The notes beneath the pieces were generated by a model. That model had not been told where the DNA came from. It did not search any database and saw nothing but the letters and a program-made list of their open reading frames with translations. From SAR202 cluster bacterium (GTDB lineage Bacteria; Chloroflexota; Dehalococcoidia; Lucifugimonadales; VGZY01), in assembly GCA_016872355.1 (NCBI GenBank), contig VGZY01000004.1, positions 15,688 to 79,687 on the forward strand: a DNA stretch of 64,000 nucleotides, in the 5' to 3' direction. The stretch's first letter is position 1. Each line of letters opens with the position of its first letter. The position numbers were made by a program, and so were the translations under genes. Below, piece by piece: positions 2,749 through 45,627 of this stretch.

Positions 2749-3462
2749 TCACACCTCGCCCAGTATCTTCGCCAGCTCGGCCGGCGCTGACAGGAACGGC
2801 GAGTGGCCGGTGTTCATTGTATAGACCTTCTTGCACGGAGTGGCGGTGTACATGTTTTTCTGGAAGGACGGCATGATCGCGAAGTCCTGGAGGCATTCTA
2901 TGTACACGCGCGGAACGCGGCCGAAGTTCTGGTCGGTGACGCGCACCCTGTCGCCGCGCGGGCCGGTCGGCTCCGGCTGGAGCAGCTTCTGCGCCCTCGC
3001 GACGTCCTCGTCCGCGCAGTCCTGGTAGAAGACGCCCTTCACCTTCGAGACGTCGATGTTAATCGTCACGCCGTCCGGGTTGGGGGAGACGATCGGCCGC
3101 AGCCTCGAGGGCTCATTCTTCGCCGTGACCTCTGGGACCGACTCGCCGTCCCTGAGCAGGTGCGCGGTCAGGTAGACCAGCGTCTTGATCCTGTCCGGCC
3201 TGGCCTCCGCGACGCCGGAGATCGTGATTCCCGCCAGGCTGTGGCCCACAAGCACTACCTTCTCGGGCAGCGAGTCCAGGGCCTGCACTACCTTGTCGAC
3301 GTTATGCTTGATCAGCAACCCGGCCGGCGGCGTCCTGTCCTTCCCGTGCGCCGGCAGGTCCACGGCGATGGCCTTGTGGCCCGCCTTCTCCAGGTAGGGT
3401 ATGAACTTGTCCCAGCACCACGCGCCGTGAAACGCGCCGTGCACCAGCACGTAAGTAGCCAT
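2749..3462 (-). CDS. Alpha/beta-fold hydrolase (SABP2/esterase-like)
   Basis: 237 aa. YVLVHGAFHGAWCWDK N-terminus and nucleophile elbow VLVGHSLAG. Confidence 0.8.
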   Translation of the reverse strand: MATYVLVHGAFHGAWCWDKFIPYLEKAGHKAIAVDLPAHGKDRTPPAGLLIKHNVDKVVQALDSLPEKVVLVGHSLAGITISGVAEARPDRIKTLVYLTAHLLRDGESVPEVTAKNEPSRLRPIVSPNPDGVTINIDVSKVKGVFYQDCADEDVARAQKLLQPEPTGPRGDRVRVTDQNFGRVPRVYIECLQDFAIMPSFQKNMYTATPCKKVYTMNTGHSPFLSAPAELAKILGEV

Positions 3463-3488
3463 TCAAACGCTCCGCCTTCTAGTCTTCC

Positions 3489-3613
3489 TTCTCTCCCCGA
3501 GGGAGAGGCCTTTGCTGCTCTGAGCAAAGGGTGAGGGCTCAGGCTGTCTGCCCCCTTCTTACCTCTCCCTTGACGGGAGAGGTCTTCGGCGCCCTGGCCG
3601 AAGGGTGAGGGTG
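3489..3613. repeat. Two tandem copies of the double-hairpin repeat module
   Basis: Copy 1 (3489-3539): CTCTCCCC-GA-GGGAGAGG, CCTTTGCTGCTCTGAGCAAAGG, GTGAGGG. Copy 2 (3562-3613): CCTCTCCC-TTGAC-GGGAGAGG, TCTTCGGCGCCCTGGCCGAAGG, GTGAGGGTG. Confidence 0.9.
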
Positions 3614-3631
3614 ACGGCTGCTGCGCCTGTT

Positions 3632-3647
3632 CCCCAGTCCCCAGTCC
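3632..3647. repeat. Heptamer tandem repeat CCCCAGT x2 (+ degenerate unit) abutting the pyrC stop codon
   Basis: tCCCCAGTCCCCAGTCCCTAg; the TAG stop of pyrC (3648-3650, minus strand) is the next triplet. Confidence 0.8.
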
Positions 3648-4970
3648 CTAGCCCCCAAAGACCACCTGCCCGCTGTAAACCGTTGCGGCCACCTTGCCCT
3701 TGAGCGTCGCGCCGTCAAGTGGCGTGTTCTTGCCCTTGGATGCGAACTGCTTTGCGTCCACCTTCCACTCGGCGTCCGGGTCGAAGATGGTCACGTCCGC
3801 GGGCGCCCCTGCCTTCAGCGTGCCGAGGTTCCTGCCCAGGAACTTCGCCGGCGCGACAGTCAGCTTCTCGATAAGCAGCGGCAGCGGCATGCCGCCGGAG
3901 TGCACCAGCGTCATGAGCAGTCCGAGCGTCGTCTCCAGGTTGCTGATGCCGTTAGCGGCCTCGTCGAACGTGCACTGCTTGTCCGTGCGGCTGTGCGGCG
4001 CGTGGTCGGTCGCGATGAAGTCCACAACGCCGTCCTTGAGCGCCTTTACCATCGCGGCAACATCCTCGCGTCCCCGCAGCGGCGGCGAGACGCGCGCGCT
4101 GGTGTCGTACGACGCCGTCGTGAGCGGGTCGAACCGCTTGCCTATGTTCGCGTAGCCCAGCACCGTCTCGTCCGGCAGCGTGAGGTGGTGCGGCGTTACC
4201 TCGCACGTCACGCTCAGGCCGCGCTCCTTCGCGCGCTTCACTATCTCCACGGTGCCCGACGTGCTTGCGTGGGCGACGTGCAGCCTGCCGCCGGTGATTT
4301 CCGCCAGCGAGACGTCGCGCGCCGCCATCGCCTCCTCTGACGAGCGGGGTATTCCGCGCAGGCCGAGGCGCGTGGCCACCCACCCTTCGTTCATGACGCC
4401 CGCGCCTGACAGCTCCTTCACTTCGCAGTGGTTGATGATCGGCAGCCCCAGGCCGGAGGCGTAGCTGAGCGCCTGGCGCATCACGTTGGCGTCGCCCACA
4501 GGGTGGCCGTCGTCGCTGAAGCCGATGACGCCGGACTTCGCCATCTCGCCCATCTCGGCCAGCTCGGCGCCCTTGCTACCCTTCGTCACCGCGCCGATGG
4601 GCAGGACGCGCACGACGCCCTCTTCCTTCGCGCGGCGGTTGACGAAGTCCACTATCGAGCTGTTGTCCATGACCGGGTTGGTGTTCGGCATCGCGCAAAG
4701 GGTGGTGAAGCCGCCGCGTGCCGCCGCCAGCGTGCCGCTCGCGATCGTCTCCTTGTACTCCAGCCCCGGCTCGCGGAGATGGCAGTGGAGGTCAATGAAG
4801 CCCGGGCACACGATCAGCCTCTGCGCGTCGATTACCTTTGCGCCCGCAGGCGGGTTGATCCGCGCGTCGATGCCGGTGATGACGCCGTTCTCGATGAGCA
4901 GGTCCGCGATCTTGTCGATGTTCTGCGACGGGTCGACGATGCGCCCGCCGGAGATGAGAATGGGGGTCAT
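3648..4970 (-). CDS. pyrC: Dihydroorotase
   Basis: 440 aa. Cyclic amidohydrolase motifs PGFIDLHCHLREPG and IATDHAPH. Located in the pyr operon context. Confidence 0.92.
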   Translation of the reverse strand: MTPILISGGRIVDPSQNIDKIADLLIENGVITGIDARINPPAGAKVIDAQRLIVCPGFIDLHCHLREPGLEYKETIASGTLAAARGGFTTLCAMPNTNPVMDNSSIVDFVNRRAKEEGVVRVLPIGAVTKGSKGAELAEMGEMAKSGVIGFSDDGHPVGDANVMRQALSYASGLGLPIINHCEVKELSGAGVMNEGWVATRLGLRGIPRSSEEAMAARDVSLAEITGGRLHVAHASTSGTVEIVKRAKERGLSVTCEVTPHHLTLPDETVLGYANIGKRFDPLTTASYDTSARVSPPLRGREDVAAMVKALKDGVVDFIATDHAPHSRTDKQCTFDEAANGISNLETTLGLLMTLVHSGGMPLPLLIEKLTVAPAKFLGRNLGTLKAGAPADVTIFDPDAEWKVDAKQFASKGKNTPLDGATLKGKVAATVYSGQVVFGG

Positions 4971-6870: not shown

Positions 6871-6905
6871 TGCCAACTACCAACTTCTAACTACCAACTG
6901 CCCTC

Positions 6906-8196: not shown

Positions 8197-8535
8197 TCAC
8201 ACCAGTCCGAGACTTCTGCGCAGAGCCTCGTCAACCTCCAGCATCTTCTCAAAAGGAAGATTGCCGATCTGTGCGCCTAATTCTGTCTGGTTTACTGTTT
8301 GTATTTGTTCGCACAAGACGAGGCCGTCCAATCGCAACCCGCTTTCAAGTGCGGTAAACGGCACATGAAATGGGTATGGCCGAGATTTCGACTGAGACGT
8401 TATGGCGGCGACGATAGTAGTTCTACTTGTCCTGTTGCCAGCATCGTTTTGAATAATGAGCACCGGCCGTCTACCGCCTTGCACAGTGCCGCTCGTCCGG
8501 CGTTCGAGCCAGTTAATGTCACCGCGTCTTATCAA
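8197..8535 (-). CDS. mazF: MazF/PemK-family endoribonuclease toxin
   Basis: 112 aa. RRGDINWL..GRRPVLIIQND...AAITSQ is typical of PemK/MazF. It overlaps the upstream RHH antitoxin by 17 nt. Confidence 0.85.
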   Translation of the reverse strand: MIRRGDINWLERRTSGTVQGGRRPVLIIQNDAGNRTSRTTIVAAITSQSKSRPYPFHVPFTALESGLRLDGLVLCEQIQTVNQTELGAQIGNLPFEKMLEVDEALRRSLGLV

Positions 8536-8800
8536 CTGGCCCTTCTTCCCACACAGTATTGTTGAAGATCATGTCCTGGGCGTAAGGGAACGATTCCGCA
8601 GCCAAACGCTGATTTTCCTCCGCCATTTCTTTATAGCCTTCCTCCATCAGCGCATAGATACGGGCCTTCTCCTCCTTCTCCAACAGGTCTGCGATAACCC
8701 CGCTGCGTGTAGTGTCTCGCTCCCTGGCAAGCCTATCAGCTACCTCCAACAGCTCTTTCCGAAGACTGATAGTAACCTTTGCCGTTGTGCTTTGCGCCAT
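8519..8800 (-). CDS. Ribbon-helix-helix (CopG/MazE-like) antitoxin
   Basis: 93 aa. AKVTISLRKELLEVADRLARERDTTRSGVIADLL is an RHH N-terminus. Positioned upstream of mazF. Confidence 0.75.
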   Translation of the reverse strand: MAQSTTAKVTISLRKELLEVADRLARERDTTRSGVIADLLEKEEKARIYALMEEGYKEMAEENQRLAAESFPYAQDMIFNNTVWEEGPVDKTR

Positions 8801-8867
8801 TTCACACCTCCACCGTAAATCTTGTCATACCAATAGTATGAACGCAAGTATGGCCAAGCAGGAATAC

Positions 8868-9335
8868 TCAGACAAGAATGAGTTCAGGAAAGTACGTGCG
8901 GTAGTACCCGCGATCCCTGGTGAGTAAACGGTCGGCGTGGACAATAGCGTGGGCGCCTATCTGGAAATCGGCCAGCACGTGTTGCCGCTGGGCCAGCGGC
9001 GAATTGCAGCTGACGCAACTGACGGCGGCCATTGCTCCGCAGGAGGCACAAATCATCCTGGAAGGCCGGCGCTGCCTGTAGGACTGCCACGCCTTGCCGG
9101 CCAGGAAGAGTGCTTCCGCGCCCGATCGATGTACCCGTATGCTGGCCTCTGAAAGGAACTCCTCCAGGTCGTTCACCTGAGAAAAGTTCGCGGCGAGCTC
9201 TGAATAGACCGGTTCGGAAATAATCGTCGCGCCAGAGCGCGCGGCATCTTCGAGAAGTTGCTCGGAGGAGTCTCCGTGAGGTGCGCCGGAAATCAGTACA
9301 TCCAGCACGATATTGGTGTCGATCGCGGTGATCAT
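8868..9335 (-). CDS. vapC: PIN-domain toxin with an inserted CxxC...CxxC zinc-ribbon-like segment
   Basis: 155 aa. PIN N-terminus ITAIDTNIVLDVL and C-terminus DFQIGAHAIVHADRLLTRD. The internal MICASCGAMAAVSCVSCNS carries four Cys. Its start overlaps the antitoxin stop (TAATG). Confidence 0.8.
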   Translation of the reverse strand: MITAIDTNIVLDVLISGAPHGDSSEQLLEDAARSGATIISEPVYSELAANFSQVNDLEEFLSEASIRVHRSGAEALFLAGKAWQSYRQRRPSRMICASCGAMAAVSCVSCNSPLAQRQHVLADFQIGAHAIVHADRLLTRDRGYYRTYFPELILV

Positions 9336-9645: not shown

Positions 9646-10980
9646 CTACTCCCCGTAGAACCACCGCGGGTCCAGCACCCGGACCCTGTTTCCGCGGTCG
9701 TGCGGCGCAAGGCCCAGCTTCTCCATGAGGGCGGTGTACTCGATCCCAAACTGCTCCCTGATCGCCGCCTTGTCGCCGAAGACGCAAATGCCATAGGTGA
9801 TCACCGCCTTGCCGTCCACGAACGTCAGCGCGGGCTCGTTCTGGCGGAGCGGGCCGGGCGCGCGGTGGTAGCGCTTGCGGTCGGTGGGCTGGCGGAACTT
9901 GCCGATGAGGAGGCGCTCGATCGGCGGCGTCTCGATGTACGCGACGTCGTCCAGGGACTCCAGGTTGCGGTGGTGCTGCCACGTCTCGCCATCGTCCTTG
10001 CTGATGGCGCAGGTGAGGCGGTGGCGGTAGTAGCCTTGCATAAGCTCCCACGGCGATGTCTGGTTCCAGATGACGAGCAGGTCCGTGTCGGCGTGATCCC
10101 TACCGTGTTCTCCTCTCCCGGCTCCGCGGGAGAGGACGTCCGGCTCCGCGGACAGGTGAGGGCGCGGTATCCTCTTGATGTTGCACGGCGCAGCCCCGGA
10201 CGCGAGGCCGGTCGGCACAGCCTCCGACCACGTCTCGCAGCCGTCGTCCGAGTACGCCTTGAAGTACTGGCCGAGCTGCGTGCGGCCGACCATCATCACG
10301 CGGCCGTCCTTCATCTCCACGACGGCGGGCTCCTCGATCGAGAACGAGCCGCCCACGCCGTTGCCCAGGATGACCCACGACTCATTCTTGCTCCGTTGCC
10401 ACGTCCGGCCTTCGTCGTCGGAGTAGTACGCGAAGCCGAACGCGAGCACGCCGCCCGCGCCGCCTGCGAAGTCCTCTCCGAAGCGCCGGAGCTTCTTCGG
10501 GTCGCCGCCCAGGTACTTTGTCCTGAGGGTCGCAAAGGAGGGCATCACAACGCGACCCGTCCGCAGAACGATGAGGTTGTCGTGGTTCGTGTGGATGTCC
10601 GTCCCCGGCGGGCTCACGTCCACGCCGTCCGACCACGTCGCCCCCTCGTCCGTCGACCTGTGGAATGTGTTGACGCTGGAGCCGTCCGCCGGTCGGTAAC
10701 GGGTCACGGAGAGCCCGATAGCGCCGCTGGTCAAACGCACGAGCTGCGTCTCGAAGGAGCCCGTGAGGGCGCCGCCGCCCGCCAGCTTCATAGACACGGG
10801 CGCGGTCCACATCTTTCCCATGTCCGACGAGTAGTTGACCTTGATCGGCCTGTCGTCCTTCGCGCCCTCGCCCCATACCCACATCAGCCGCCCGTCCTTC
10901 AGCCCAATGATGCTCGAATACGACGGGCTGAGCCCGACGGTATCCATCTTGATCGTAACGTTGGTAATTTCAGTGGACAC
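9646..10980 (-). CDS. BNR/sialidase-fold beta-propeller protein, paralogue 1 (no signal peptide)
   Basis: 444 aa with repeated SxDxGxTW (Asp-box) motifs: SSDMGKMWT, STDEGATWS, SDDEGRTWQ, SDDGCETWS, SKDDGETWQ. Contains a repeat-derived insert at 10095-10170. Confidence 0.8.
   Translation of the reverse strand: MSTEITNVTIKMDTVGLSPSYSSIIGLKDGRLMWVWGEGAKDDRPIKVNYSSDMGKMWTAPVSMKLAGGGALTGSFETQLVRLTSGAIGLSVTRYRPADGSSVNTFHRSTDEGATWSDGVDVSPPGTDIHTNHDNLIVLRTGRVVMPSFATLRTKYLGGDPKKLRRFGEDFAGGAGGVLAFGFAYYSDDEGRTWQRSKNESWVILGNGVGGSFSIEEPAVVEMKDGRVMMVGRTQLGQYFKAYSDDGCETWSEAVPTGLASGAAPCNIKRIPRPHLSAEPDVLSRGAGRGEHGRDHADTDLLVIWNQTSPWELMQGYYRHRLTCAISKDDGETWQHHRNLESLDDVAYIETPPIERLLIGKFRQPTDRKRYHRAPGPLRQNEPALTFVDGKAVITYGICVFGDKAAIREQFGIEYTALMEKLGLAPHDRGNRVRVLDPRWFYGE
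10095..10170. repeat. Hairpin repeat module embedded in frame in BNR paralogue 1
   Basis: CCTCTCCCGGCTCCGCGGGAGAGG ... GTCCGGCTCCGCGGAC AGGTGAGGG. It encodes RPHLSAEPDVLSRGAGRGEHGRDHAD, which is absent from paralogue 3. Confidence 0.8.
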
Positions 10981-11006
10981 TGGATTCTCCCGGCTCTTTG
11001 TATTGT

Positions 11007-11098
11007 CCCTCTCCCGGTTCGCGCGGCGGAACGGGAGAAGGAGGCTGTTAGCTCACTGCCGACTGCCGACTGCCGACTGCTCACTGCCCACTGCCATT
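11007..11098. repeat. Intergenic composite: hairpin (CCCTCTCCCG-N14-CGGGAGAAGG) + CTGCCGA-type heptamer array
   Basis: Hairpin at 11007-11043; heptamers CTGCCGA x3, CTGCTCA, CTGCCCA, CTGCCAT at 11050-11098. Fills the gap between BNR paralogues 2 and 1. Confidence 0.9.
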
Positions 11099-11102
11099 CC
11101 CC

Positions 11103-12461
11103 CTACTCCCCATAAAACCAGGCCGTCTTCAGCACGCGGACCCGGTTGCCGCTGTCGAAGGGGGCGAGCCCCAGCTTCTCCATAAGCGCCTGGTAGGACA
11201 CTCCGAAGCGCTGCGGGTTCTCCGCCTTGTCGCCGAAGGCGCGCACGCCGTAGGTGATAATGGCGGTGTCGCCAACGAAGGTGATCGATGGCTGGTTGCA
11301 CCTGAGCGGCCCCGGAGCGCGGTGTTAGCGCTTGCGGTCCACCGGCTGGGCCGTCTTGCCGATCAGGTCCGCCTCTACCGGCCCAGGTTCGATATACGCA
11401 ACGTCGTCCAGCGACTCCAGGTTGCGGTGGCGTTGCCACGTCTTGCCCTCGTCTTTGCTGACGGCGCAGGTCAGCCGGTGCCGGAAGAGGCCGTTCATCG
11501 TCTCCCACTGCGACGCCTGGTTCCAGATAACGAGGAGGTCGGCATCGGCGAGGTCGCTACCGTTTTCTCTTCTCCCGGCCCCGCGGGAGAGGATGTCGCG
11601 CTCCGGCGACAGGTGAGGGAGGTGAGGGCGCGGGATGCGAGTGACCGTCGCGGGTGAGGGGTAGCAGGCTAGGCCGGTAGGCTCGGGCATCGACCATGTC
11701 TCGCCGAGGTCGTCGGAATAGCACTGGAAGTGGCGGCCCAGGTTCGTTCGGCCGAGCATCATCACCCGCCCGTCAACGAGCTCCACCACAGCCGGCTCCC
11801 CCATCGAATAGCAGCCCAGCGCGCCGGTGTCCAGGACGACGAATGCCTCGTTGTTGCTGCGCTTCCAGGTGGCGCCCTCGTCGTCGGAGTAGTACGCGCT
11901 GGAGTACGCAAGCGCGCAGCGAGAGGCGCCGTCGAACGACTCTCCCAGTCGCTTGATGGCCCTTACGTCGCCCGTCGGCATCGGCCCCATCATGTCGTAG
12001 AAGGGGACAACTATCCGTCCATCCCTCAGGACTATCGAGCTCTCATTGGCGCATACGGCGTCCGCCCCCGGAGGGTTGATGCGCACCGGCGGCGACCACG
12101 TCGCGCCCTCGTCCTTCGAGGAGGTGAATATCAGCCCGGCGTGGTAGTCCGCCTCGTACGCGCCCGTGTGGGCATAGGCCCGCATCACGAGGCCGATGCC
12201 GCCGGACTTGAGCCTGAAGATGTTCGTTTCCATGATGGCCGGCAGCGGCCCGCCGGTCGTCAGCTTGAGGTGCACCGGCGCGGACCACGTCGCGCCACCG
12301 TCCTCGGAGAAGTTCGCCCGCACGGGCTTCACGGGGTCCGCGCTGCCGGAGCCGTACACCCACATGAGCCGGCCGTCGCGCAGCGGCAGCACAGCGCCGT
12401 AGGATGGGCTGAGGTCTACCGTGTCCAGCTTGATCGTCGCATTAACGAGATCCGACGCCAT
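11103..12461 (-). pseudogene. BNR/sialidase-fold paralogue 2, interrupted by one in-frame TAA
   Basis: The frame from MASDLVNATIKLDTVDLSPSYG (ATG 12459-12461) reads to ...QPVDRKR, then TAA at 11325-11327. It then continues in the same frame as HRAPGPLRCNQPSITFVGDTAIITYG...KTAWFYGE to TAG at 11103-11105. Paralogues 1 and 3 have Tyr at the stop position (RKRYHRAPGPL / LKRYHRSPGPL). Confidence 0.85.
11545..11640. repeat. Hairpin repeat module embedded in frame in BNR paralogue 2
   Basis: CTTCTCCCGGCCCCGCGGGAGAGG ... CAGGTGAGGGAGGTGAGGG. It encodes RPHLPHLSPERDILSRGAGRRENGSDLAD at the same site as in paralogue 1. Confidence 0.8.
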
Positions 12462-12528: not shown

Positions 12529-13803
12529 CTACTCACCGTAGAACCAGCTCGACGACACTACCCGGACTTTGTTCCCCCGGTCGTACGGGGCGAGGCCCAG
12601 CTTCTCCATGAGCGCCTCGTACGATAAGCCGAACCGCTCCGGGATCTCCGCCTTGTCGCCGAAGACGCACATTCCGTAGGTAATGACCGCCTTGTCGCCA
12701 ACGAAGACACACGAGGGCTGGTTGAAGCGCAGCGGGCCGGGAGATCGGTGGTAGCGCTTGAGGTCCGCCGGCTGTTTGAACTTGCCTACGAGGTCGATCT
12801 GGATCGGCCCCGGCTCGATGTAGGACACGTCGTCCATCGATTCCAGGTTGCGGTGGTGCTGCCACGTCTTCCCCTCGTCCTTGCTCACAGCAGTGCTAAG
12901 GCGGTGGCGGTAGAGGCCGTTCATAGTTTCCCACTGTGATATCTGGTTCCAGATGACGACCAGATCGCCGGTGGTCGTGATGCGCTTGATCGTCGCCGGA
13001 GAGGGGTAGCATGCGAGCTGCGTCGGCTCCGGCTGCATCCACGTCTCGCCCGCGTCGTCGGATACGCTCTGGAAGAAGCGGCCAACGTTTGTGCGCGCCA
13101 GCATCAGCACCTTGCCGCCCTTCAGCTCCACCACGGCCGGCTCGCCCATGGAGTAGCTGCCTCCCGCGCCGTGTTCAAGGTTCACGAAGGCCTCATTGTT
13201 GCTCCGCCTCCACGTCGCGCCCTCGTCGTCGGAAAGGAACGCGCTGCAGTAGTAGAGCGTCGCGCGCTCGGGATTGCTGAAGCTCGCGCCGTACCTCTGC
13301 ACCGCCCGCACTTCGCCATACGGCTTCGCGCCGATGCCGATGTAGTACGGCACGATGATGCGGCCGCTGCTGTGGACGATCGACTTCTCGTTCGTAATGA
13401 CGGCGTTCGTTCCGGGCGGGTTGATAGTCACTGGCGGCGACCACGTCGCGCCCTCGTCTTGCGAGGCTGAGAAGATGATGCTCGCCTGGTAGTCGGCCTC
13501 GTATGCTCCGGCCTTCGCGGACCCCCGCAGCACAAGGCCGATGCCGCCGGACTTCAGTCTGAAGAGGTTCGTATCGAGGACGGCAACGAAGGGCTCGCCG
13601 GTCGTGAGTTTGAGGTGCACGGGCGCGGACCACGTCGCGCCTCCATCGCTGGAAAAGTTCGCCCGAACGGGGAGTGCGGGGTTGGCCCTGCCGGAGGTGT
13701 ATATCCACATCAGCCGCCCGTCGTTGAGCGGGATCACCGCCCCATAAGACGGGCTCTGGTCTACCTTGCCCATCTTCACGATGGTGTTTACGTATTCAGG
13801 CAT
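12529..13803 (-). CDS. BNR/sialidase-fold beta-propeller protein, paralogue 3
   Basis: 424 aa from MPEYVNTIVKMGKVDQSPSYG, with Asp-boxes SSDGGATWS, SQDEGATWS, SDDEGATWR, SDDAGETWM, SKDEGKTWQ. Lacks the repeat-derived insert (..IKRITTTGDLVVIWNQ..). Confidence 0.8.
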   Translation of the reverse strand: MPEYVNTIVKMGKVDQSPSYGAVIPLNDGRLMWIYTSGRANPALPVRANFSSDGGATWSAPVHLKLTTGEPFVAVLDTNLFRLKSGGIGLVLRGSAKAGAYEADYQASIIFSASQDEGATWSPPVTINPPGTNAVITNEKSIVHSSGRIIVPYYIGIGAKPYGEVRAVQRYGASFSNPERATLYYCSAFLSDDEGATWRRSNNEAFVNLEHGAGGSYSMGEPAVVELKGGKVLMLARTNVGRFFQSVSDDAGETWMQPEPTQLACYPSPATIKRITTTGDLVVIWNQISQWETMNGLYRHRLSTAVSKDEGKTWQHHRNLESMDDVSYIEPGPIQIDLVGKFKQPADLKRYHRSPGPLRFNQPSCVFVGDKAVITYGMCVFGDKAEIPERFGLSYEALMEKLGLAPYDRGNKVRVVSSSWFYGE

Positions 13804-14567: not shown

Positions 14568-14618
14568 CCTAACACCTAACACCTAACACCTAACACCCAA
14601 TCCCTGACACCTAACACC
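14568..14618. repeat. Heptamer tandem array (CCTAACA)4-CCCAATC-CCTGACA-CCTAACA
   Basis: Seven consecutive 7-nt units end 2 nt before the ATG at 14619. They lie in the divergent region between 14399 (-) and 14619 (+). Confidence 0.9.
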
Positions 14619-14987
14619 ATGCCTGACACCAACGTCAAAATTCACGACTATGCCGACGAGCTGATATCCACGCCGCGCGCGCACCTGGCGCTTGATCTGT
14701 CGCAGGACGAGCAGGGGCTGAAGCTCAGCCACGACGGGAAGATGCTCGTGGAGTGCTACATCACGCGGGATGGGATGGCTGCGGGCGGGTTCATGGCGAA
14801 GGCGCTGGGGGTAAAACTTCCACCGCTGGGAAAGGCCGTGAAGGCGCGCGTCTCCACAGGGGTCCTCTTCCGAGCGGTATCTATAGCGTCGCTGGACTTC
14901 AACGTCGAGGAGTCGTTCGAGCTTCTGGAGCGGTGGCTGGAGGAGGCAGAGCTTCAGCGCGGCGGTGAGGATGTGTCGGCGTCGTAG
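14619..14987 (+). CDS. Hypothetical protein (no family recognised)
   Basis: 122-aa ORF MPDTNVKIHDYADELISTPRAHLALDLSQDEQ.... No Shine-Dalgarno is visible because the heptamer array reaches the start codon. Confidence 0.45.
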   Translation: MPDTNVKIHDYADELISTPRAHLALDLSQDEQGLKLSHDGKMLVECYITRDGMAAGGFMAKALGVKLPPLGKAVKARVSTGVLFRAVSIASLDFNVEESFELLERWLEEAELQRGGEDVSAS

Positions 14988-15004: not shown

Positions 15005-15406
15005 TTAGTTCGGCGTGCCGCCTGGACCCAGGTACTTGTCTGCGGCCGTGCGAAGTTTGTCGTCGAAGGTTACCAGGGGCGCGCCTAGCTTTTTCGAAAG
15101 GTATAGATAAGACGCATCGTAAATTGAGAGCTTCGTCTGAAGGGCTATATCCAGAACTTCAGAATGGTCTACCGGCACCCAATGGATCTTCATTGCCAAA
15201 GCGAAGCTCAGTTGCGATGCAATTGATTGGTATCGGTATATATCGGCCAGAATCTTCTTTTTCGCTACGTTACACAACTCATAGGCAAGCAAATGAGGCT
15301 CGAAAAACTCATCAACCCCCTCAAGTAGGGTCTTGGCTTGGACCGCGGAAGGCTCCTCGAAGGCAATGGCGGCGAAGATAGAGGCGTCCACCACCTTACC
15401 TGGCAT
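15005..15406 (-). CDS. vapC: PIN-domain toxin (VapC family)
   Basis: 133 aa. KVVDASIFAAIAF... and IYDASYLYLSKKLGAPLVTFDDKL motifs. Overlaps the upstream antitoxin by 11 nt. Lower GC than the flanks. Confidence 0.85.
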   Translation of the reverse strand: MPGKVVDASIFAAIAFEEPSAVQAKTLLEGVDEFFEPHLLAYELCNVAKKKILADIYRYQSIASQLSFALAMKIHWVPVDHSEVLDIALQTKLSIYDASYLYLSKKLGAPLVTFDDKLRTAADKYLGPGGTPN

Positions 15407-26691: not shown

Positions 26692-26743
26692 CACCCTCAC
26701 CCTTTGCCCAGAGCGGCAAAGGCCTCTCCCTCAATGGAGAGGA
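26692..26743. repeat. Double-hairpin repeat module, reverse orientation
   Basis: CCCTCAC, CCTTTGCCCAGAGCGGCAAAGG, CCTCTCCC-TCAAT-GGAGAGG is the reverse complement of the module at 3489-3613 and 54572-54623. Confidence 0.9.
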
Positions 26744-26917
26744 GGTATGCGGCGCCATCCCGTAACCATTGTGCCCGGTTTGCACCCTCTTGTTTTCTCC
26801 CCCTCGACTCGGGAGATGTCGCAGCTCCGGGCGACAGAGAGGGTGGCCGGGGTGGCGCGGCGCCGGGATCCTCGCCCTGTGCCCTCGTAGTGGCGGGCTC
26901 TGCCCGCCTCCGATGGT

Positions 26918-33174: not shown

Positions 33175-33225
33175 GTGAAGTCAAATCGCCCCGATACAAC
33201 CGGGCCGCTGTCTTGCCGACGGCTC

Positions 33226-33270
33226 TCTGCTCACTGCCGACTGCCATCTGCTGACTGCCATCTGCCATCC
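33226..33270. repeat. Heptamer array (..CTG-ending units: CTCACTG CCGACTG CCATCTG CTGACTG CCATCTG CCATCCT)
   Basis: Reverse complement is GGATGGCAGATGGCAGTCAGCAGATGGCAGTCGGCAGTGAG, the same GGCAGTC family as in ileS and 11050-11098. Confidence 0.8.
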
Positions 33271-33302
33271 TGCTATAATCGTCCGATAGAACTTCAAGCC
33301 GC

Positions 33303-40013: not shown

Positions 40014-40883
40014 TCACAATCCCCGCACCCACTCGATCTGCCTTTCCAATCCCTCCACCGGCCCGAACGTCTCCAGCAATATCGTTGCGTCCATGCCACG
40101 GATTGAGCGGTGGAATGGGCGGGGCAATGTGCCGGTGCCGAGGTCTCCGTGGGTGTCTGCACGGCCGCGGGGGTCGTACAGGAAGTTGTCGCTCCAGTGG
40201 ACGTGGCGGACTTTGGGGGCGAGGTCTAGGAATTTCATCAGCTCCCGTTCGCGGTGCTCTGTCGGGAAGCGCTGAACGTATGTGCAGGCGTGGCTGGCGT
40301 CCAGCGTGAGGCCAACGTTGGATTTCCCGATGTCGTCGTACGCCTGCGAGAGATCGTCAGGTGTGACGCCGAAGAACTGGTACGCCTGCTTTGACCAGTC
40401 TACCTGGTCGCCGGTGGTCTCCGGCGCGATGCCGGTCCACTCCAGCCCCTGATTTTCGATCACTATCTCCACGGCGTACTTCGCCGCGTAGTCTGCGATC
40501 TGCCGGTAGCCGTCTATCATGCGGGCGTAGTCGCCGTAGGTGACGCGCGGCGGGTCCGCGTCGCGCCACACCATCGCGTTGAAGTGGATGCTTACCTGTT
40601 TCAGCTTCGGGAAGTCGCGCACCATGTCTATGTAGTCCATGACCGCCCGGATGCATAGCTTCCGGTAGGCGTCGTCCGTTGCGCCGACGTTGAGGCCCAG
40701 GCCATCGATGGACGTAGGGCCGTGGGCGCTGATCATGATGTCGCGATACGGGAGCATCCGGTCGCGGGTGCTGTGTATCTCGCCCTCGACAGCTAGGCCG
40801 AGGCGCTGGAGTGCTTCGAGGGGGTAGTGCATCATGCCGGAGAGCGGCGGACGGCGGAGATTCTGAAAGGTTGCCTGGCGCAT
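40014..40883 (-). CDS. Xylose-isomerase-like TIM-barrel protein (sugar phosphate isomerase/epimerase family), paralogue 1
   Basis: 289 aa. VRHVHWSDNFLYDPRGRADTHGDLGTGTLP and LTLDASHA motifs are shared by all four tandem paralogues. Confidence 0.75.
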   Translation of the reverse strand: MRQATFQNLRRPPLSGMMHYPLEALQRLGLAVEGEIHSTRDRMLPYRDIMISAHGPTSIDGLGLNVGATDDAYRKLCIRAVMDYIDMVRDFPKLKQVSIHFNAMVWRDADPPRVTYGDYARMIDGYRQIADYAAKYAVEIVIENQGLEWTGIAPETTGDQVDWSKQAYQFFGVTPDDLSQAYDDIGKSNVGLTLDASHACTYVQRFPTEHRERELMKFLDLAPKVRHVHWSDNFLYDPRGRADTHGDLGTGTLPRPFHRSIRGMDATILLETFGPVEGLERQIEWVRGL

Positions 40884-40928
40884 CTCACCCTCTCTGTCGC
40901 GACATCTCTCCCATCAAGGGAGAGACAA
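40884..40928. repeat. Degenerate hairpin repeat (CTCACCCTC ... TCTCTCCC-ATCA-AGGGAGAGA)
   Basis: Intergenic between TIM-barrel paralogues 2 and 1, followed by CGACAGC-type heptamer-like units. Confidence 0.6.
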
Positions 40929-40995
40929 AGCAATGAACAGCCGACAGCCGCCCTCACCGGTCCGCAAGCCCGGAGCCGGGAGAGGAACACAGCCG

Positions 40996-41889
40996 CTAAA
41001 GCCCTGCGATGAACTCCATCTGCTTTTCGGTTTCTTCGACGGTGCCGAAGGTCTCCATCAAGACGGTGGCGTCCAGCGCCTTAACGGCTTTGTGGAACGC
41101 GCGGGGCAGCTCGCCTACCCCGAGGAGCTGGTGGGCGTCAGTGAGGCCCGCCGGGCCGGTCAGAGAGCTATCGCTCCAGTGGACGTGGCGGATTAGGTCT
41201 GGCCGCGCAAGGAAGGAGAAGAGGACCTTCTCACGCTCGGCCGCCGGGAAGGTGCGGGCGTAGGTCGTCGCGTGGCTGGTGTCCAGGCAAAGCCCGACGT
41301 TGGGCATGTTGATATCCAGGGCGATCTTGACCCACTCCTCAGGCGATGTGCCGAAGTAGCGGTTCTGCTTGCTCCAGTCCACCTTCATGCCGTCCGTGTT
41401 CGGCGGCAGGAGAGCCCAGTAGCGCGCGTGGTTCTCAAGCGTAAGCTCCAGCTTGCGCTTCGCGGCGTGGGCACCTATTTCCTTGAGCGCGTCGATAAGG
41501 CGGCTATACTCGCCGCGGTTGCCGCGAGTCTGCTCCTTCATCTCTCGCTTACCGATCAGCGAGGGGTGCGGCACGCCGTTCCACTGCTCCGGGCTGAAGT
41601 GGATGTTGACCTTCTTCACATGCGGGAAGTCGCGCATCATATCCAGGTAGTCGGTCGTATCCTTGATCGACATGCGACGCCACTCGTCGTCGGTGGCGGC
41701 GTAGTTCATCCGCAGCTCCTGCATCTCGGTCGGCCCGTGGGCGCTGACCATGACCTCCTTGTACGCGAGCATCTCCTCGCGCGGGCTGTGCATGTAGCCT
41801 TCCACGCCGGCCAGGCCAAGGCGCTTTACGTCTGCAACAGGGAGCTGTTGCATGCCGATTAGAGGGTGCCTTGTAGTTGTCTTGGGCAT
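40996..41889 (-). CDS. Xylose-isomerase-like TIM-barrel protein, paralogue 2
   Basis: 297 aa. IRHVHWSDSSLTGPAGLTDAHQLLGVGELP. Confidence 0.75.
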   Translation of the reverse strand: MPKTTTRHPLIGMQQLPVADVKRLGLAGVEGYMHSPREEMLAYKEVMVSAHGPTEMQELRMNYAATDDEWRRMSIKDTTDYLDMMRDFPHVKKVNIHFSPEQWNGVPHPSLIGKREMKEQTRGNRGEYSRLIDALKEIGAHAAKRKLELTLENHARYWALLPPNTDGMKVDWSKQNRYFGTSPEEWVKIALDINMPNVGLCLDTSHATTYARTFPAAEREKVLFSFLARPDLIRHVHWSDSSLTGPAGLTDAHQLLGVGELPRAFHKAVKALDATVLMETFGTVEETEKQMEFIAGL

Positions 41890-41900
41890 TGGAGATTCCT

Positions 41901-42758
41901 CTACAGTTTGGAAATGTAATCGAGCTCTTCTTCCAGCGACTCCACCGATTCGAAGTGCTCCAGGAGGAGCGTGGCGTTGAGCGACTTAACCTTCTTGTGA
42001 AACTCTCTTGGCAAGCTGCCTTTGCCGAGGAGGACGTGGTGGCCCTTACGGCCGCGCTTATCCATGAGGTAGTTATCGTTCCAGTGCACGTGCGTGATGA
42101 GGTGCGATTGGGCCATGTACGCCATTGCGATCGCGGGGCGCTTCTCGGCGTCGAACAGGGCGGCGTAGGTGCACAGGTGGCTGCCGTCCAGGCACAGGCG
42201 CACGTTGGGGCGGTTGACGTCCTCGCATACCTTGATCCAGGCCTCCGGCGCGACCCCGAATACGTGGTTGCGCTGCGTCCAGTCCACCTCCCACGCCTCC
42301 GTCGTCTCCGGGATGTCCGTCCACTTCAGCGTATCGTTCTCCAGCACCACCTCGATCCCGAACTTCACGGCGAACGCTCCCACCTGCCGGATGCCGTCGA
42401 TAAGCAGCCCGTACTCGCCGACGTGACCGCGCGGCTGCTCGACGTGGAAGTACCGCTGCGTATGGCAGTGGAGGACGACCTGACGGAGGTTAGGGAAATG
42501 CCGCACCTTGTCGATGTAGGCGGTGATTGCGTCGATGGAGAACTGGCGGAACTCGCTGTCCGCTGCGGAGATGTTGTACCGGTACTCGCCGCTGGGCCCG
42601 TTGGGGATGTGGGCGCTGATGATCAGGTCTTGGAAAGCGGTCGTCTTCTCCGGGCTCAGGTCGGTCTTCACCTCGGTCTTGAGGCCGAGGCGGCGGAGGG
42701 TATCGGCTCCGGCCGTCATCGGAGCGGATATGGCGTACTTAGTGCCGACGTTTCTCAC
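41901..42758 (-). CDS. Xylose-isomerase-like TIM-barrel protein, paralogue 3
   Basis: 285 aa. ITHVHWNDNYLMDKRGRKGHHVLLGKGSLP. Confidence 0.75.
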   Translation of the reverse strand: MRNVGTKYAISAPMTAGADTLRRLGLKTEVKTDLSPEKTTAFQDLIISAHIPNGPSGEYRYNISAADSEFRQFSIDAITAYIDKVRHFPNLRQVVLHCHTQRYFHVEQPRGHVGEYGLLIDGIRQVGAFAVKFGIEVVLENDTLKWTDIPETTEAWEVDWTQRNHVFGVAPEAWIKVCEDVNRPNVRLCLDGSHLCTYAALFDAEKRPAIAMAYMAQSHLITHVHWNDNYLMDKRGRKGHHVLLGKGSLPREFHKKVKSLNATLLLEHFESVESLEEELDYISKL

Positions 42759-42768
42759 AGAGGCGCCT

Positions 42769-43629
42769 TTAAAGGCTATTTATGAATTCCAGCTCCCCTT
42801 CGAGCTCTTCAATGGAGTAGAAGTGCTCTATGAGCAGCCACGCGTCCAGGCTCTTGATCGTGCGGTGGAGCTCAATGGGCGTCGTCCCATTGTTGAGGAC
42901 GGTGTGGTTGTCCACCCTGCCCTTCGGGTCGTACAGATAGTTATCGTTCCAGTGGACGTGGCGGATCAGGTCCGGCCGCTTCACGAACTCTAGAATTTTA
43001 TCCTTGCGCTGCTCGGCCGGGAACATGTGCGAGTAGGTGCAGGCGTGGCTGGAGTCCAGGCAGAGCCCCACGTTCGAAAGGTTAATGTCCAGCGCCGCCT
43101 GTATCCACTCGTCCGGCGAGTTGCCGAAACAGGCGTTGCGGTACGTCCAGTCGAACTTGTGCGCCTCCTCTGCGTCGGGGATTCCGACGTAGTACGAGTT
43201 GTTATTCTCCAGCACCATTTCGAGGCCGTGCTTTGCACAGTGGCGGCCGATCTGGCGGAAGCCGTCCACAAGGCGGTCGTATGTCCCTTGCTTGCCGCGC
43301 GTTTGCGTGGCGTCGCTCCACTGGCGGGGCGAGAAGTGGACGTTGATCATCCGCACCTTCGGGAACTGCCGGGCGCGTTCTACGTAGTCGATGATGTGCT
43401 CGATGGACTCCTTGCGGTAATGGTCGTCCACGGCGGCGATGTTCAGGCGCAGGCCGCCCTTCGTGCCGGGCGCGTGGGCGCTGTACATCACCTCGGAGAG
43501 GTGGGCGACGTCCTTGAGATCATCGGACATCGCGGCCTCGGTGATTAGGCCGAGCCGCCTGAGGTTGTCCAGCCCGGCCTTGGTCGTGACGCCGAGCGGG
43601 TGCTTGAGCTGGTTGTATTTCTTCGAAAT
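42769..43629 (-). CDS. Xylose-isomerase-like TIM-barrel protein, paralogue 4 (conserved N-terminus only reachable from an ATT codon)
   Basis: The track ORF starts at ATG 43528-43530. However, 33 upstream in-frame codons (ISKKYNQLKHPLGVTTKAGLDNLRRLGLITEAA) align with the paralogue N-termini (..HPL.G....L.RLGL..). ATT at 43627-43629 lies 8 nt after AGGAG. Confidence 0.65.
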   Translation of the reverse strand: MSKKYNQLKHPLGVTTKAGLDNLRRLGLITEAAMSDDLKDVAHLSEVMYSAHAPGTKGGLRLNIAAVDDHYRKESIEHIIDYVERARQFPKVRMINVHFSPRQWSDATQTRGKQGTYDRLVDGFRQIGRHCAKHGLEMVLENNNSYYVGIPDAEEAHKFDWTYRNACFGNSPDEWIQAALDINLSNVGLCLDSSHACTYSHMFPAEQRKDKILEFVKRPDLIRHVHWNDNYLYDPKGRVDNHTVLNNGTTPIELHRTIKSLDAWLLIEHFYSIEELEGELEFINSL

Positions 43630-43649: not shown

Positions 43650-44546
43650 TTATCGCTTCGTCGCCTTCCCCAACCCTAACTGCTCCACTGCCTTCTTTAT
43701 GACCTCGCGCTGGCCGGGCCTGAGCGGCGCGAGCGGTGGGCGCGGGTCTCCGCAGTCCATGCCTATGAGATCGCTCACCATCGCCTTCATCCCCGCCAGG
43801 TACTCCACCTGCAAGAGGATGTCAAACGTCTCGGTCGCCTTCTTCTGTGCCGCGACCGCGCGGGCGATGTCGCCTGCCTCGTATGCCCTCTTTATCTCCA
43901 CCCACATCTGCGGCGCGATACCGAGCGGCCCGTCCACACATCCCGTTCCGCCTATCGTGAGCGAGGGGAGGTAGAGGCGGAAGTCGCCGATCAGCGTGGA
44001 GAGGCCCATTTTCGCCTAGTCGACCATCGCGCCGTAGTCCATGGAGGCGTGCTTAAGGCCTACGAGCTGCGGGACCTTCTCCTTTATCTTCGCCATCAGC
44101 GCGGGCGTAATCTCGATGCCCGTCGCGATGGGAAGGTTGTACACGAAGAGCGGCAGGTTTGCGGCCGCGCCGACGACGCGGTAGTACTCGACGACGGCGT
44201 CGTGGCCGGGGTTGAAGAAGTGCGGCGGGAGCGCGCAGATGGCCTCCACGCCCGCCTTCGCGGCGTTCTCCGCGTTCTTCGCCGCGCGCGCCGTCGTGGC
44301 CGCGCCTACCTGCATGATGACCGTGGTGCGGCCCTTGTTCTGGTCCGCGGAAATCTCCGCAATGCGCCTGTTCTCCTCGTCCGTCAGGTATACGCTCTCG
44401 CCGGTGCCGCCGGCCGTCCAGAAGCCGTCGACTCCCGCGCGGATGTTCATCTCCATAACGGCGCGGAAAGCCTCTTCGTTGACCTTGCCGTCCTTCCTGC
44501 TCATCGGCGTGATGGCCGCCGGGAAGACACCCTTGTAATGCTTCAC
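43650..44546 (-). pseudogene. DapA/N-acetylneuraminate-lyase-family (DHDPS-like) lyase, paralogue 1, interrupted by one in-frame TAG
   Basis: GGTGES, YNLP and the catalytic-Lys region VGLKHAS are present. ...MDYGAMVD is followed by TAG at 44016-44018, then AKMGLSTLIGDF... in the same frame. In paralogue 2 the aligned residue is Phe (MIWFSEMGL). The start is uncertain (GTG 44544-44546 proposed). Confidence 0.8.
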
Positions 44547-44682
44547 GTCATGCCTCACATTCCGGCGCGGGTCTCCCGCGCCGCCGACATTGTACCACCG
44601 GGAATTGCCGTTCGCCCTGTCTAAAAACATGTAGCCGCACAGCATTCTGTGCGGCTACATAGTCACGACCTGGCGGTCCAGT

Positions 44683-45627
44683 CTACTTCTTGGCCGCGGC
44701 GGCCGTCTTGAGGGTGCGCTTGAAGTCGTGCTTGCCTGCGCCGGTGATGCCCCACTCCTCGCAGACCTTGTTGATGGCCTTGCGGTTCTCAGCCGACATG
44801 GGGAGGACCGGCCGGCGCGGGTTGCCGCACTCGATGCCGGTGCGCTCGCTGATCATCGCCTTCATCGAGCCCATGTATCCGTACTTGAGGATGAGGTTGA
44901 ACAGGTCGTTGGCCTTACGCTGGGCGGCGACGCCGCGCTTCAGATCGCCGGCCTTCCAGGCGTTCCAGATCTCCATCCACAACTCCGGCGCGACGGACGG
45001 GGGGCCGTCCACGGTGCCGGACGCGCCCACGGTCAGCGCCGGGAAGAGGAGCATGCCGGAGCCGGTCAGGACCTTCAGCCCCATCTCCGAGAACCAGATC
45101 ATGTTGTTGAAGTTCAGGGCTGAGTGCTTGAGGCCGACCATCTGCGGGACCTTGTCCTGCAGCTTCTTCATGAGGTCGACGGTGATCTCGATCTGGGTGG
45201 CCTGAGGCAGGTTGTAGACCATGAGGGGCAGGTTGGTCGCCGCGCCGATCGCGCGGTAGTGCTCGACGACCGCATCGTCGCCCGGGCGGACGAAGAAAGG
45301 CGGTACAGCGCAGAGCGCCTCCACGCCGGCCTTGGCCGCGTTCTCGGCATTCTTGACTGCTCTGTCGGTCGTTATCGCCCCCACGTGCATGATGATGGTG
45401 GAGCGGCCCTTGTTCTGGTCCGCCGCAATCTTCGCGATGCGCGTGTTCTCCTCGTCCGTGAGCATCACGCTCTCGCCGGTGCCGCCTGCAGTCCAGAATC
45501 CGTGGATGCCGCAGCGGATGTTGTCCTCCAGCATCGCGCGGAACGCCTCTTCGTGGACCTCACCCTTCTCCGTCATGGGGGTGATGATCGCCGGATAAAT
45601 GCCTTCAAATGTGGGCTTGTTGGCCAT
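44683..45627 (-). CDS. DapA/N-acetylneuraminate-lyase-family lyase, paralogue 2 (intact)
   Basis: 314 aa. YPAIITPM, GGTGES, VYNLP, VGLKHSA. Confidence 0.85.
   Translation of the reverse strand: MANKPTFEGIYPAIITPMTEKGEVHEEAFRAMLEDNIRCGIHGFWTAGGTGESVMLTDEENTRIAKIAADQNKGRSTIIMHVGAITTDRAVKNAENAAKAGVEALCAVPPFFVRPGDDAVVEHYRAIGAATNLPLMVYNLPQATQIEITVDLMKKLQDKVPQMVGLKHSALNFNNMIWFSEMGLKVLTGSGMLLFPALTVGASGTVDGPPSVAPELWMEIWNAWKAGDLKRGVAAQRKANDLFNLILKYGYMGSMKAMISERTGIECGNPRRPVLPMSAENRKAINKVCEEWGITGAGKHDFKRTLKTAAAAKK

Follow-up and report, generated by a model that had tools for sequence, protein, structure and literature searches.

How does the same small hairpin module come to lie in frame, at the same codon, in two of three neighboring protein-coding genes? 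The question is raised by a locus in the genome of a SAR202 cluster bacterium (Chloroflexota; Dehalococcoidia), where three tandem BNR genes, here called P1 (9646-10980), P2 (11103-12536) and P3 (12529-13878), are encoded on the minus strand. Unless another contig is named, all coordinates refer to the window, the whole stretch of 64,000 nucleotides that was analyzed (contig VGZY01000004.1, positions 15,688 to 79,687). P1 and P2 contain a block of extra codons that P3 lacks. Judged by their sequence, these codons are a copy of a small dispersed double-hairpin DNA repeat, which is found between genes and in frame inside other genes of the same genome. Here, we describe the insert, its history among the paralogues, and its relation to known palindromic repeats.

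The insert in the BNR genes

The first-pass annotation of this DNA had placed one hairpin module in frame at an identical site in P1 and P2 and had P3 reading straight through. A codon-aware alignment bears out both points. The extra codons sit between ..KRIP and DLLVIWNQ, as residues 273-298 of P1 (RPHLSAEPDVLSRGAGRGEHGRDHAD) and residues 303-331 of P2 (RPHLPHLSPERDILSRGAGRRENGSDLAD), and P3 is uninterrupted there (IKRITTTGDLVVIWNQ; empty site at 12964-12984 on the minus strand, CGC ATC ACG ACC ACC GGC GAT, R I T T T G D). The peptides quoted for the three paralogues are exact, and the encoding DNA lies as described on the plus strand. The size, put at about 26-30 extra codons, needs correction, as the net gain over the homologous segment is 24 codons in P1 and 27 in P2.

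At the DNA level, the patch comprises 78 nt in P1 (10087-10164; codon alignment, blastn and homologue alignment), a stretch common to P2, where it measures 87 nt (11544-11630; codon alignment and blastn). The comparison of filled and empty paralogues places its limits to within a few bases. The repeat runs in plus orientation, antisense to the genes. Both patches read CCTCTCCC-GGCYCCGC-GGGAGAGG, followed by a second hairpin and by AGGTGAGGG; this core motif has two matches in the window and none in 100 shuffles. Motif and hairpin searches locate hairpin 1 of P1 (CCTCTCCC / GGCTCCGC loop / GGGAGAGG) at 10112-10135, and hairpin searches and the family pattern place hairpin 2 (GTCCG-GCTCCG-CGGAC) with its AGGTGAGGG tail at 10138-10162, both on the plus strand. 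In P2, hairpin 1 lies at 11569-11592 and the repeat core at 11571-11628 on the same strand, including a 9-nt tandem duplication of AGGTGAGGG at 11611-11628. One end of the P2 patch shows a tandem only, GCCGAY/GCCGAC.

The two patches are 85% identical (66/78), compared with 67% for the P1 and P2 genes overall. Of their 12 differences, four are synonymous and eight non-synonymous, which gives no sign of protein-level constraint on the insert. The hairpin-2 stems, GTCCG..CGGAC in P1 and GTCGC..GCGAC in P2, differ at four positions, all of them compensatory (two pair swaps). Upstream of hairpin 1, on its 5' side, lies a stretch of 27 nt that is 78% identical between P1 and P2 and stands beside no other copy of the repeat; a CTAC 14-17 nt upstream is likewise confined to these two. 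The folding energy of the inserts on the mRNA strand is ordinary for their GC content (z = -1.46 and +0.77).

P1 (444 amino acids) was delimited by its open reading frame (ORF) and Pfam match and P3 by ORF, alignment and Pfam, while P2 was read from its translation and is a homologue of both by alignment. The two genes that were scanned, P1 and P3, match BNR_2 (PF13088) at 74.8 and 101.2 bits (E=9.7e-21 for P1). Five SxDxGxxW Asp-boxes are present in P1, and a Foldseek search with its structure model matched the bacterial sialidases 1wcq and 1eus (E about 1e-15). Pfam profile, Asp-boxes and modeled fold agree in describing the host genes as six-bladed, sialidase-like propellers of the BNR_2 / GH33-like kind. 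The periodicity of GC content at third codon positions (GC3) agrees with the reading frames through the inserts. In P2, a TAA stands in frame at 11325-11327 (..DRKR-stop-HRAPGPL..), where P1 and P3 have a tyrosine, and the frame is still conserved past this codon down to the normal stop at 11103. The TAA is also found in L128, a separately recorded contig of the same Joint Genome Institute (JGI) sample, which is 100% identical to the window over 4,083 nt, including both inserts.

Homologues and paralogue phylogeny

The first-pass annotation took the insert for an acquisition, a claim that would have been in difficulty had most database homologues carried a similar insert. A search with P1 yielded 119 non-self homologues and a search with P2 a further 12 that cover the site, and the insert is present in none of these 131, all of which read RIP-xTGD-LLVIWNQ. 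In the joint alignment, the segment measures 28-30 residues in all 119 homologues, against 53 in P1 and 56 in P2. A contig of another organism (L124) also has three tandem BNR_2 genes, none of the three with an insert. By this sequence comparison the insert is the derived state and not the remnant of a deletion in P3, which represents the ancestral state, and the proposal of an acquisition is upheld.

The annotation had further proposed that the insert was either inherited through a later duplication or spread by gene conversion. The first of these routes does not agree with the neighbor-joining tree, in which P1 groups with the insert-free homologues P0002-P0006 and P2 with the insert-free P3 and P0015. 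Bootstrap values are 100/100 for the P1 clade and 100/100 for P2 with P3 and P0015, and a grouping of P1 with P2 received 0/100. P0015 comes from a different sample and is 89% identical to P3. As P1 and P2 belong to different insert-free clades, the patch was not inherited by duplication. Diagnostic residues show that each keeps the sequence of its own clade right up to the patch on both sides; since the two are not sisters, the patch was either transferred over a tract barely longer than itself or arrived twice. The second route, gene conversion, still stands as a candidate, with the qualification that its tract would be almost exactly the patch, as clade residues resume immediately on both sides. 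Conversion does occur among these tandem paralogues, since the C-terminal ~45 residues of P1 (9646-9790; ..ALMEKLGLAP..WFYGE) are of P2/P3 type, unlike those of its own clade (..ELMVQQGLAP..WFYQ).

Position of the insert in the propeller

The AlphaFold2 model of P1, built from 97 sequences, has a mean predicted local distance difference test score (pLDDT) of 93.7 and a predicted template modeling score (pTM) of 0.92. Its sole low-confidence stretch comprises residues 271-300, with pLDDT below 50 at 277-291, and includes the insert. In this model the P1 insert lies between the strands 267-270 and 301-306, and the two strands after these enclose the next Asp-box (327-334), which assigns the insert to the turn between strands 1 and 2 of that blade. 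The inserted residues are predicted to form a disordered loop rich in Gly, Arg, Pro and Glu. From propeller topology, the turn would be on the Asp-box face, opposite the catalytic face.

Dispersed copies of the repeat in the genome

The repeat has the layout TCTCCC-loop-GGGAGAGG, a variable self-complementary hairpin 2 and a GGTGAGGG tail. The copies in P1 and P2 have both the hairpin-1 arms (CC)TCTCCC / GGGAGA(GG) and the variable self-complementary second hairpin with GGTGAGGG. The arm pattern TCTCCC N3-25 GGGAGA occurs 10 times in the window, where 0.17 are expected. The full pattern TCTCCC N3-10 GGGAGAGG N15-30 GGTGAGGG occurs five times, always on the plus strand, against none in shuffles, with starts at 3492, 3564, 10114 (P1), 11571 (P2) and 54574. 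The first two are intergenic copies that form a direct tandem pair (3490-3537 and 3564-3611, plus strand). A scan with one mismatch per motif adds an intergenic copy at 26694-26740 on the minus strand, which forms an inverted pair with a degenerate intergenic copy at 26796-26843 on the plus strand (tail AGAGAGGG), found by hairpin-arm and relaxed scans. A shortened intergenic copy of the P1 subtype (TCTCCCGGCTCCG.., GTGTTC 5' flank) lies at 40951-40985 on the minus strand, directly after the stop of the gene at 40996-41889. Between P2 and P1, at 11010-11095, a hairpin-1-like stem-loop (11010-11038; z = -3.85) is followed by an (ACTGCCG)n heptamer array. In total, the approximately 68 kb of genome sequence that were surveyed (the window and the overlapping contig L129) contain about nine full copies, four of them intragenic. 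Both L128 and L129 come from the same JGI sample, 3300020193, and are 100% identical to parts of the window.

The same metagenome sample yielded a further contig, L121, with three more copies. One intergenic copy among them is identical to P2 in hairpin 2 and tail over 36 nt and has a different hairpin-1 loop; L121 was the sole contig returned when metagenomes were searched for a pattern peculiar to hairpin 2 of P1 and P2. Its tandem pair at 3316-3440 resembles the one at 3490-3611 of the window in hairpin-1 loops and spacer, while the hairpin-2 stems are wholly different and yet self-complementary. This comparison indicates that the repeat has a mosaic build, in which hairpin 1 and the tail stay constant and the hairpin-2 cassette varies. 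One hairpin, GTCCCGATG..CATCGGGAC, turns up again as a cassette of its own.

Heptamer arrays adjoin several repeat copies. Intergenic arrays in the window are located at 3631-3657 (TCCCCAG), 6873-6899 (CCAACTA), 11055-11095 (ACTGCCG), 14568-14630 (CCTAACA) and 33214-33274 (CTGCCAT), and are reminiscent of the STRR (short tandemly repeated repetitive) sequences of cyanobacteria.

In-frame copies in other genes

The BNR genes are not the only proteins with a copy of the repeat. The isoleucyl-tRNA synthetase gene ileS (about 53876-57142; protein IleRS) contains an in-frame insert at 54521-54631 on the plus strand, made up of a (GCAGTCR)n heptamer array and a repeat copy at 54574-54621 in sense orientation. 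It lies inside the tRNA-synt_1 domain, at the turn before LLIWTTTPWTL. IleRS is here 34 amino acids longer than 92 of 119 homologues, which have the six-residue turn FPLx-DRPGE-SLL, and an alignment to the Thermus thermophilus enzyme (1ILE) puts the gap between residues 213 and 222. NCBI records an identical IleRS protein under a SAR202 cluster bacterium. Different inserts occupy the same turn in 27 of the 119 Chloroflexota homologues, and the three that were examined are encoded by heptamer arrays. A second array in the same gene (56314-56342, AGTCAGC x4) encodes ..VVGSQQSAVGKAKE.., about five residues longer than in homologues, in a variable loop. Another copy (L129 8435-8487, 3.7 kb left of the window) is in frame in carB, the gene for the large subunit of carbamoyl-phosphate synthase, where the protein has 33 residues in place of the four in E. 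coli CarB (1BXR).

The orientation of the repeat relative to the gene is antisense in the BNR genes and sense in IleRS and CarB, and no common DNA target is visible between the three kinds of site. None of the in-gene copies shifts the frame or introduces a stop, and none uses the GGG-TGA-GGG frame. That the insert is bypassed in translation or excised was therefore judged unlikely, the more so as the 9-nt duplication in P2 also preserves the frame.

Coding insertions of this kind are not confined to one genome. A copy lies in frame inside the PMT_2 glycosyltransferase domain encoded at 2252-3832 of L054, a Chloroflexota metagenome-assembled genome (MAG), and another is probably inside a ~1000-amino-acid Sortilin/BNR protein of a Thermoanaerobaculia MAG (L030 1884-4877). 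Three further candidates (L002, L036 and L096) were dropped as in-gene cases, as the part of the ORF that Pfam supports begins only downstream of the repeat.

Distribution of the repeat among bacteria

At least 120 stretches of reference genomes contain the exact pattern. The matches listed include Bradyrhizobium, Sphingomonas, Caulobacter, Planctomycetota, Acidobacteriota, Verrucomicrobiota, Myxococcota, Gammaproteobacteria and Chloroflexota, and inverted pairs 20-35 nt apart are frequent among these loci. Gene calls in loci from other genomes rest on GC3 periodicity and Pfam. Copies were chosen by exact pattern, and the conservation of the motifs is partly a product of this selection. A MAFFT alignment of 56 copies misplaced the left arm of hairpin 1 owing to variable loop lengths, and for this reason hairpin statistics were taken from direct pairing counts per copy, with shuffled controls, in 159 distinct copies, and not from a covariance model. 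Hairpin 2 has at least five Watson-Crick pairs in 125 of the 159 copies, against 44 of 159 after shuffling, with 122 distinct stems; mismatches in its stem are G-T in 14 cases versus A-C in nine. The ninth pair of hairpin 1 covaries (CG 81, AT 34, GC 10, TA 6). DNA of the type d(GCGNAGC) forms unusually stable mini-hairpins. In the family, G-N-A loops closed by C-G occur in 77 of the 159 copies, an abundance that hints at a role as single-stranded DNA.

The orientation of copies relative to flanking genes is not fixed (45/26/26/11). In the flank logos, only (C)CC upstream and G downstream stand out, conservation ends after about 3 nt, and the hairpins in the family logo have neither a GTAG nor a CGTC tag beside them. 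Outer pairing of CCCTCACC with GGTGAGGG is found in only 21 of 148 copies. At gathering thresholds, no Rfam family covers the repeat in the window or in 16 loci from other genomes, and the window contains no tRNA or tmRNA. A full-text literature search for the DNA strings of the repeat and a search for SAR202 together with palindromic repeats both returned nothing relevant. The repeat is apparently uncatalogued.

Comparison with known repeat elements

Ogata and colleagues, in 2000 and 2002, reportedly described the Rickettsia palindromic elements (RPE), short palindromic repeats located between genes and in frame inside them. Intragenic repetitive extragenic palindromic (REP) sequences have been surveyed in several species besides Rickettsia (Di Nocera et al., 2013; PMC3733652). 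The SAR202 repeat resembles both in being dispersed intergenically as well as in frame in genes for functional, even essential, proteins, where it adds about 20-30 residues at tolerated positions. BNR P1 and P2, IleRS and CarB all show what characterizes in-frame RPE, namely a location in ORFs of conserved proteins at tolerated surface positions. The repeat differs from RPE in being a double hairpin (TCTCCC/GGGAGAGG/GGTGAGGG) without the CGTC/GTAG tag, a distinction drawn from tags and layout. The hosts differ too: the SAR202 Chloroflexota host is not obligately intracellular, and the repeat family occurs in many phyla.

With REP sequences and their composites, the bacterial interspersed mosaic elements (BIME) and REP doublets forming hairpins (REPIN), the repeat shares GC-rich hairpins, a mostly intergenic location and frequent inverted pairs 20-35 nt apart (26694/26796 in the window), as well as a mosaic build of one hairpin-1 and spacer frame with different hairpin-2 cassettes. 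However, the GTAG/CGTC tetranucleotide of REP and REPIN is absent, no REP-associated tyrosine transposase (RAYT) was seen among the ORFs scanned in about 68 kb of genome, and REPs are usually lineage-specific, whereas the motifs of the SAR202 repeat are conserved across phyla. [quoted passage not shown] In contrast to these, the SAR202 repeat has no target-site duplication at filled sites, a CCCTCACC...GGTGAGGG terminal inverted repeat in only the 21 copies mentioned above, and a length of only about 50-80 nt.

In sequence, the repeat resembles Whalefall-1 (RF01762), a free-standing non-coding RNA (ncRNA) candidate described from whale-fall metagenomes only (Weinberg et al., 2010; PMC2864571). 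Its two-hairpin layout and conserved letters (CUCUCC-loop-GGAGAG ... AGGGUGAGG) are those of the repeat, and in the E-value mode of Rfam the intergenic tandem copies (3487-3538 and 3559-3612) align full-length to the model (positions 1-56). Their scores of 18.5 and 21.4 bits (the latter with E=0.0017) are nevertheless below the gathering score of 37. No match to Whalefall-1 was obtained with the copies in P1 and P2 at E<=5, nor with the 16 loci from other phyla. Neither has Whalefall-1 been described as a dispersed or coding repeat. As a phenomenon, the inserts are thus of the RPE or intragenic-REP kind; by sequence and architecture the repeat is neither an RPE, a GTAG/CGTC REP nor a MITE.

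Gene neighborhood of the BNR array

Toxin-antitoxin genes flank the BNR array on both sides (8197-9335 and 15005-15406); they include a PemK/MazF toxin, paired with a DUF6364 partner, as well as two genes of the PIN-domain (VapC-like) kind. Four tandem paralogues are located at 40014-43530, the first of which, the one scanned, is a xylose-isomerase-like TIM-barrel protein (AP_endonuc_2). Two paralogous genes follow at 44016-45627; the second, which was scanned, is DHDPS/NanA-like, and the first (209 amino acids) looks truncated. Together with the BNR array, these genes suggest a region for the catabolism of sugar acids or sialic-acid-like compounds with the paralogue expansions typical of SAR202.

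Origin of the inserts

We consider it probable that the BNR inserts are in-frame, tolerated, RPE-like insertions of a dispersed repeat, carried as passengers and not as adaptations of the enzyme. A repeat copy would have inserted, in antisense orientation and in frame, into the tight turn that joins strands 1 and 2 of a BNR propeller blade, and would have survived there because its length is a multiple of three, no frame in this orientation contains a stop, and the fold tolerates a loop. As a selfish structured DNA repeat, it would persist in genes only where length, frame and location are harmless. The likeliest course, with about even chances, is that one paralogue acquired the patch and that roughly 80 nt were then copied into its neighbor at a distance of 1.46 kb, either through ectopic conversion of a short patch or through template switching. 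Such a single origin followed by copying is favored because the two copies agree in codon, orientation and frame, have the 27-nt extension in common, and lie in an array with gene conversion elsewhere.

Several observations weigh against this account. Flanking the patch, neither terminal inverted repeats nor, in a comparison of P1 and P2 with six empty sites (including P3, P0015, P0005 and P0006), a target-site duplication were found, and no transposase was noticed among the ORFs scanned in the surveyed sequence, so that mobility is deduced solely from filled versus empty sites and the mobilizing machinery can only be presumed. About 27 nt of the patch on the 5' side of hairpin 1 are outside the family consensus and occur only in P1 and P2. 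The TAA may mark P2 as a recent pseudogene or be a strain variant, and both the translation of the insert and its neutrality are points that we infer. On both sides the copying tract would stop no more than a few bases from the patch, and upstream the homology amounts to just about 6 nt; so short a tract and so little homology are unusual for conversion of the RecA type. The exclusively compensatory differences in hairpin 2 and the 36-nt identity with L121 fit two source copies at least as well.

Indeed, two sibling copies could have entered P1 and P2 independently at the same turn, through target preference or because few turns are tolerant, an explanation that we regard as unlikely but not far-fetched. 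The sharp patch boundaries, beyond which clade-specific residues resume at once on both sides, agree with it, as does the occurrence of each hairpin-2 variant elsewhere (that of P2 on L121 and that of P1 at 40951-40985), with stems that differ by two compensatory pair swaps. The different repeat-encoded inserts that the IleRS loop took in 27 of 119 Chloroflexota homologues also indicate that permissive turns are recurrent sinks. It has to explain, however, why the P1 and P2 copies are alike in codon, orientation and frame down to the 27-nt non-consensus extension, when the BNR, IleRS and CarB sites lack a common DNA target and differ in repeat orientation relative to the gene. A bolder reading, separate from the two above, sees in the repeat a single ancient mobile element that crosses phyla, of which Whalefall-1 would be one narrow glimpse. 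Its hairpin 1 and GGTGAGGG tail would be recognized as single-stranded DNA by an enzyme, it would be copied into homologous turns of paralogues through template switching or in a manner akin to homing, and its DNA or RNA structure would be under selection inside coding sequence. This is rather improbable; if true, the element creates new surface loops in proteins, including the essential IleRS and CarB.

A functional role, in which the hairpins would act as signals at the RNA or DNA level (to pause translation, or as RNase site, internal terminator or recombination site) or the loop would be an adaptation, is more doubtful still. In its favor, both hairpins are intact in both paralogues with the four hairpin-2 substitutions all compensatory, covariation in the family is strong, and the intergenic copies resemble the Whalefall-1 ncRNA candidate. 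On the other hand, orientation varies in genes (antisense in BNR, sense in IleRS and CarB) and is not fixed relative to flanking genes in the family, folding on the mRNA strand is not unusual, and the peptide is unconserved between P1 and P2, predicted to be disordered and found in no homologue. An ancestral insert followed by precise deletion in P3 and the other lineages is effectively refuted by its absence from 131 homologues. Palindromes can be excised by slippage, and P3 is off the consensus at the site (RIT instead of RIP), but the insert-free sisters of P1 and P2 (100% bootstrap) would require at least three or four exact in-frame deletions, and there are no flanking direct repeats for precise excision. 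We give this explanation very little credence. Least credible of all is an artefact of assembly or binning, or a mis-called frame. The source is a MAG, but the identity of L128 over both inserts and the P2 stop, the GC3 support for the frames and the excellent AlphaFold2 model on either side of the insert all contradict it.

Biological significance

In-frame palindromic repeats are best known from Rickettsia. The SAR202 genome provides a case outside that genus in which a selfish repeat adds loops to proteins, and does so in four genes over about 68 kb, among them the essential genes for IleRS and CarB. The BNR paralogues constitute an internal comparison of filled and empty sites, in which the patch moved between, or twice into, genes that are not sisters, and such sites are material for working out how these repeats move. 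In practice, repeats of this kind can lengthen proteins, give rise to spurious 'hypothetical proteins', and mislead alignments and ncRNA searches. To account for the same motifs in Proteobacteria, Planctomycetota, Acidobacteriota, Verrucomicrobiota and Chloroflexota, either a machinery for their recognition that is shared or horizontal transfer on a wide scale is needed.

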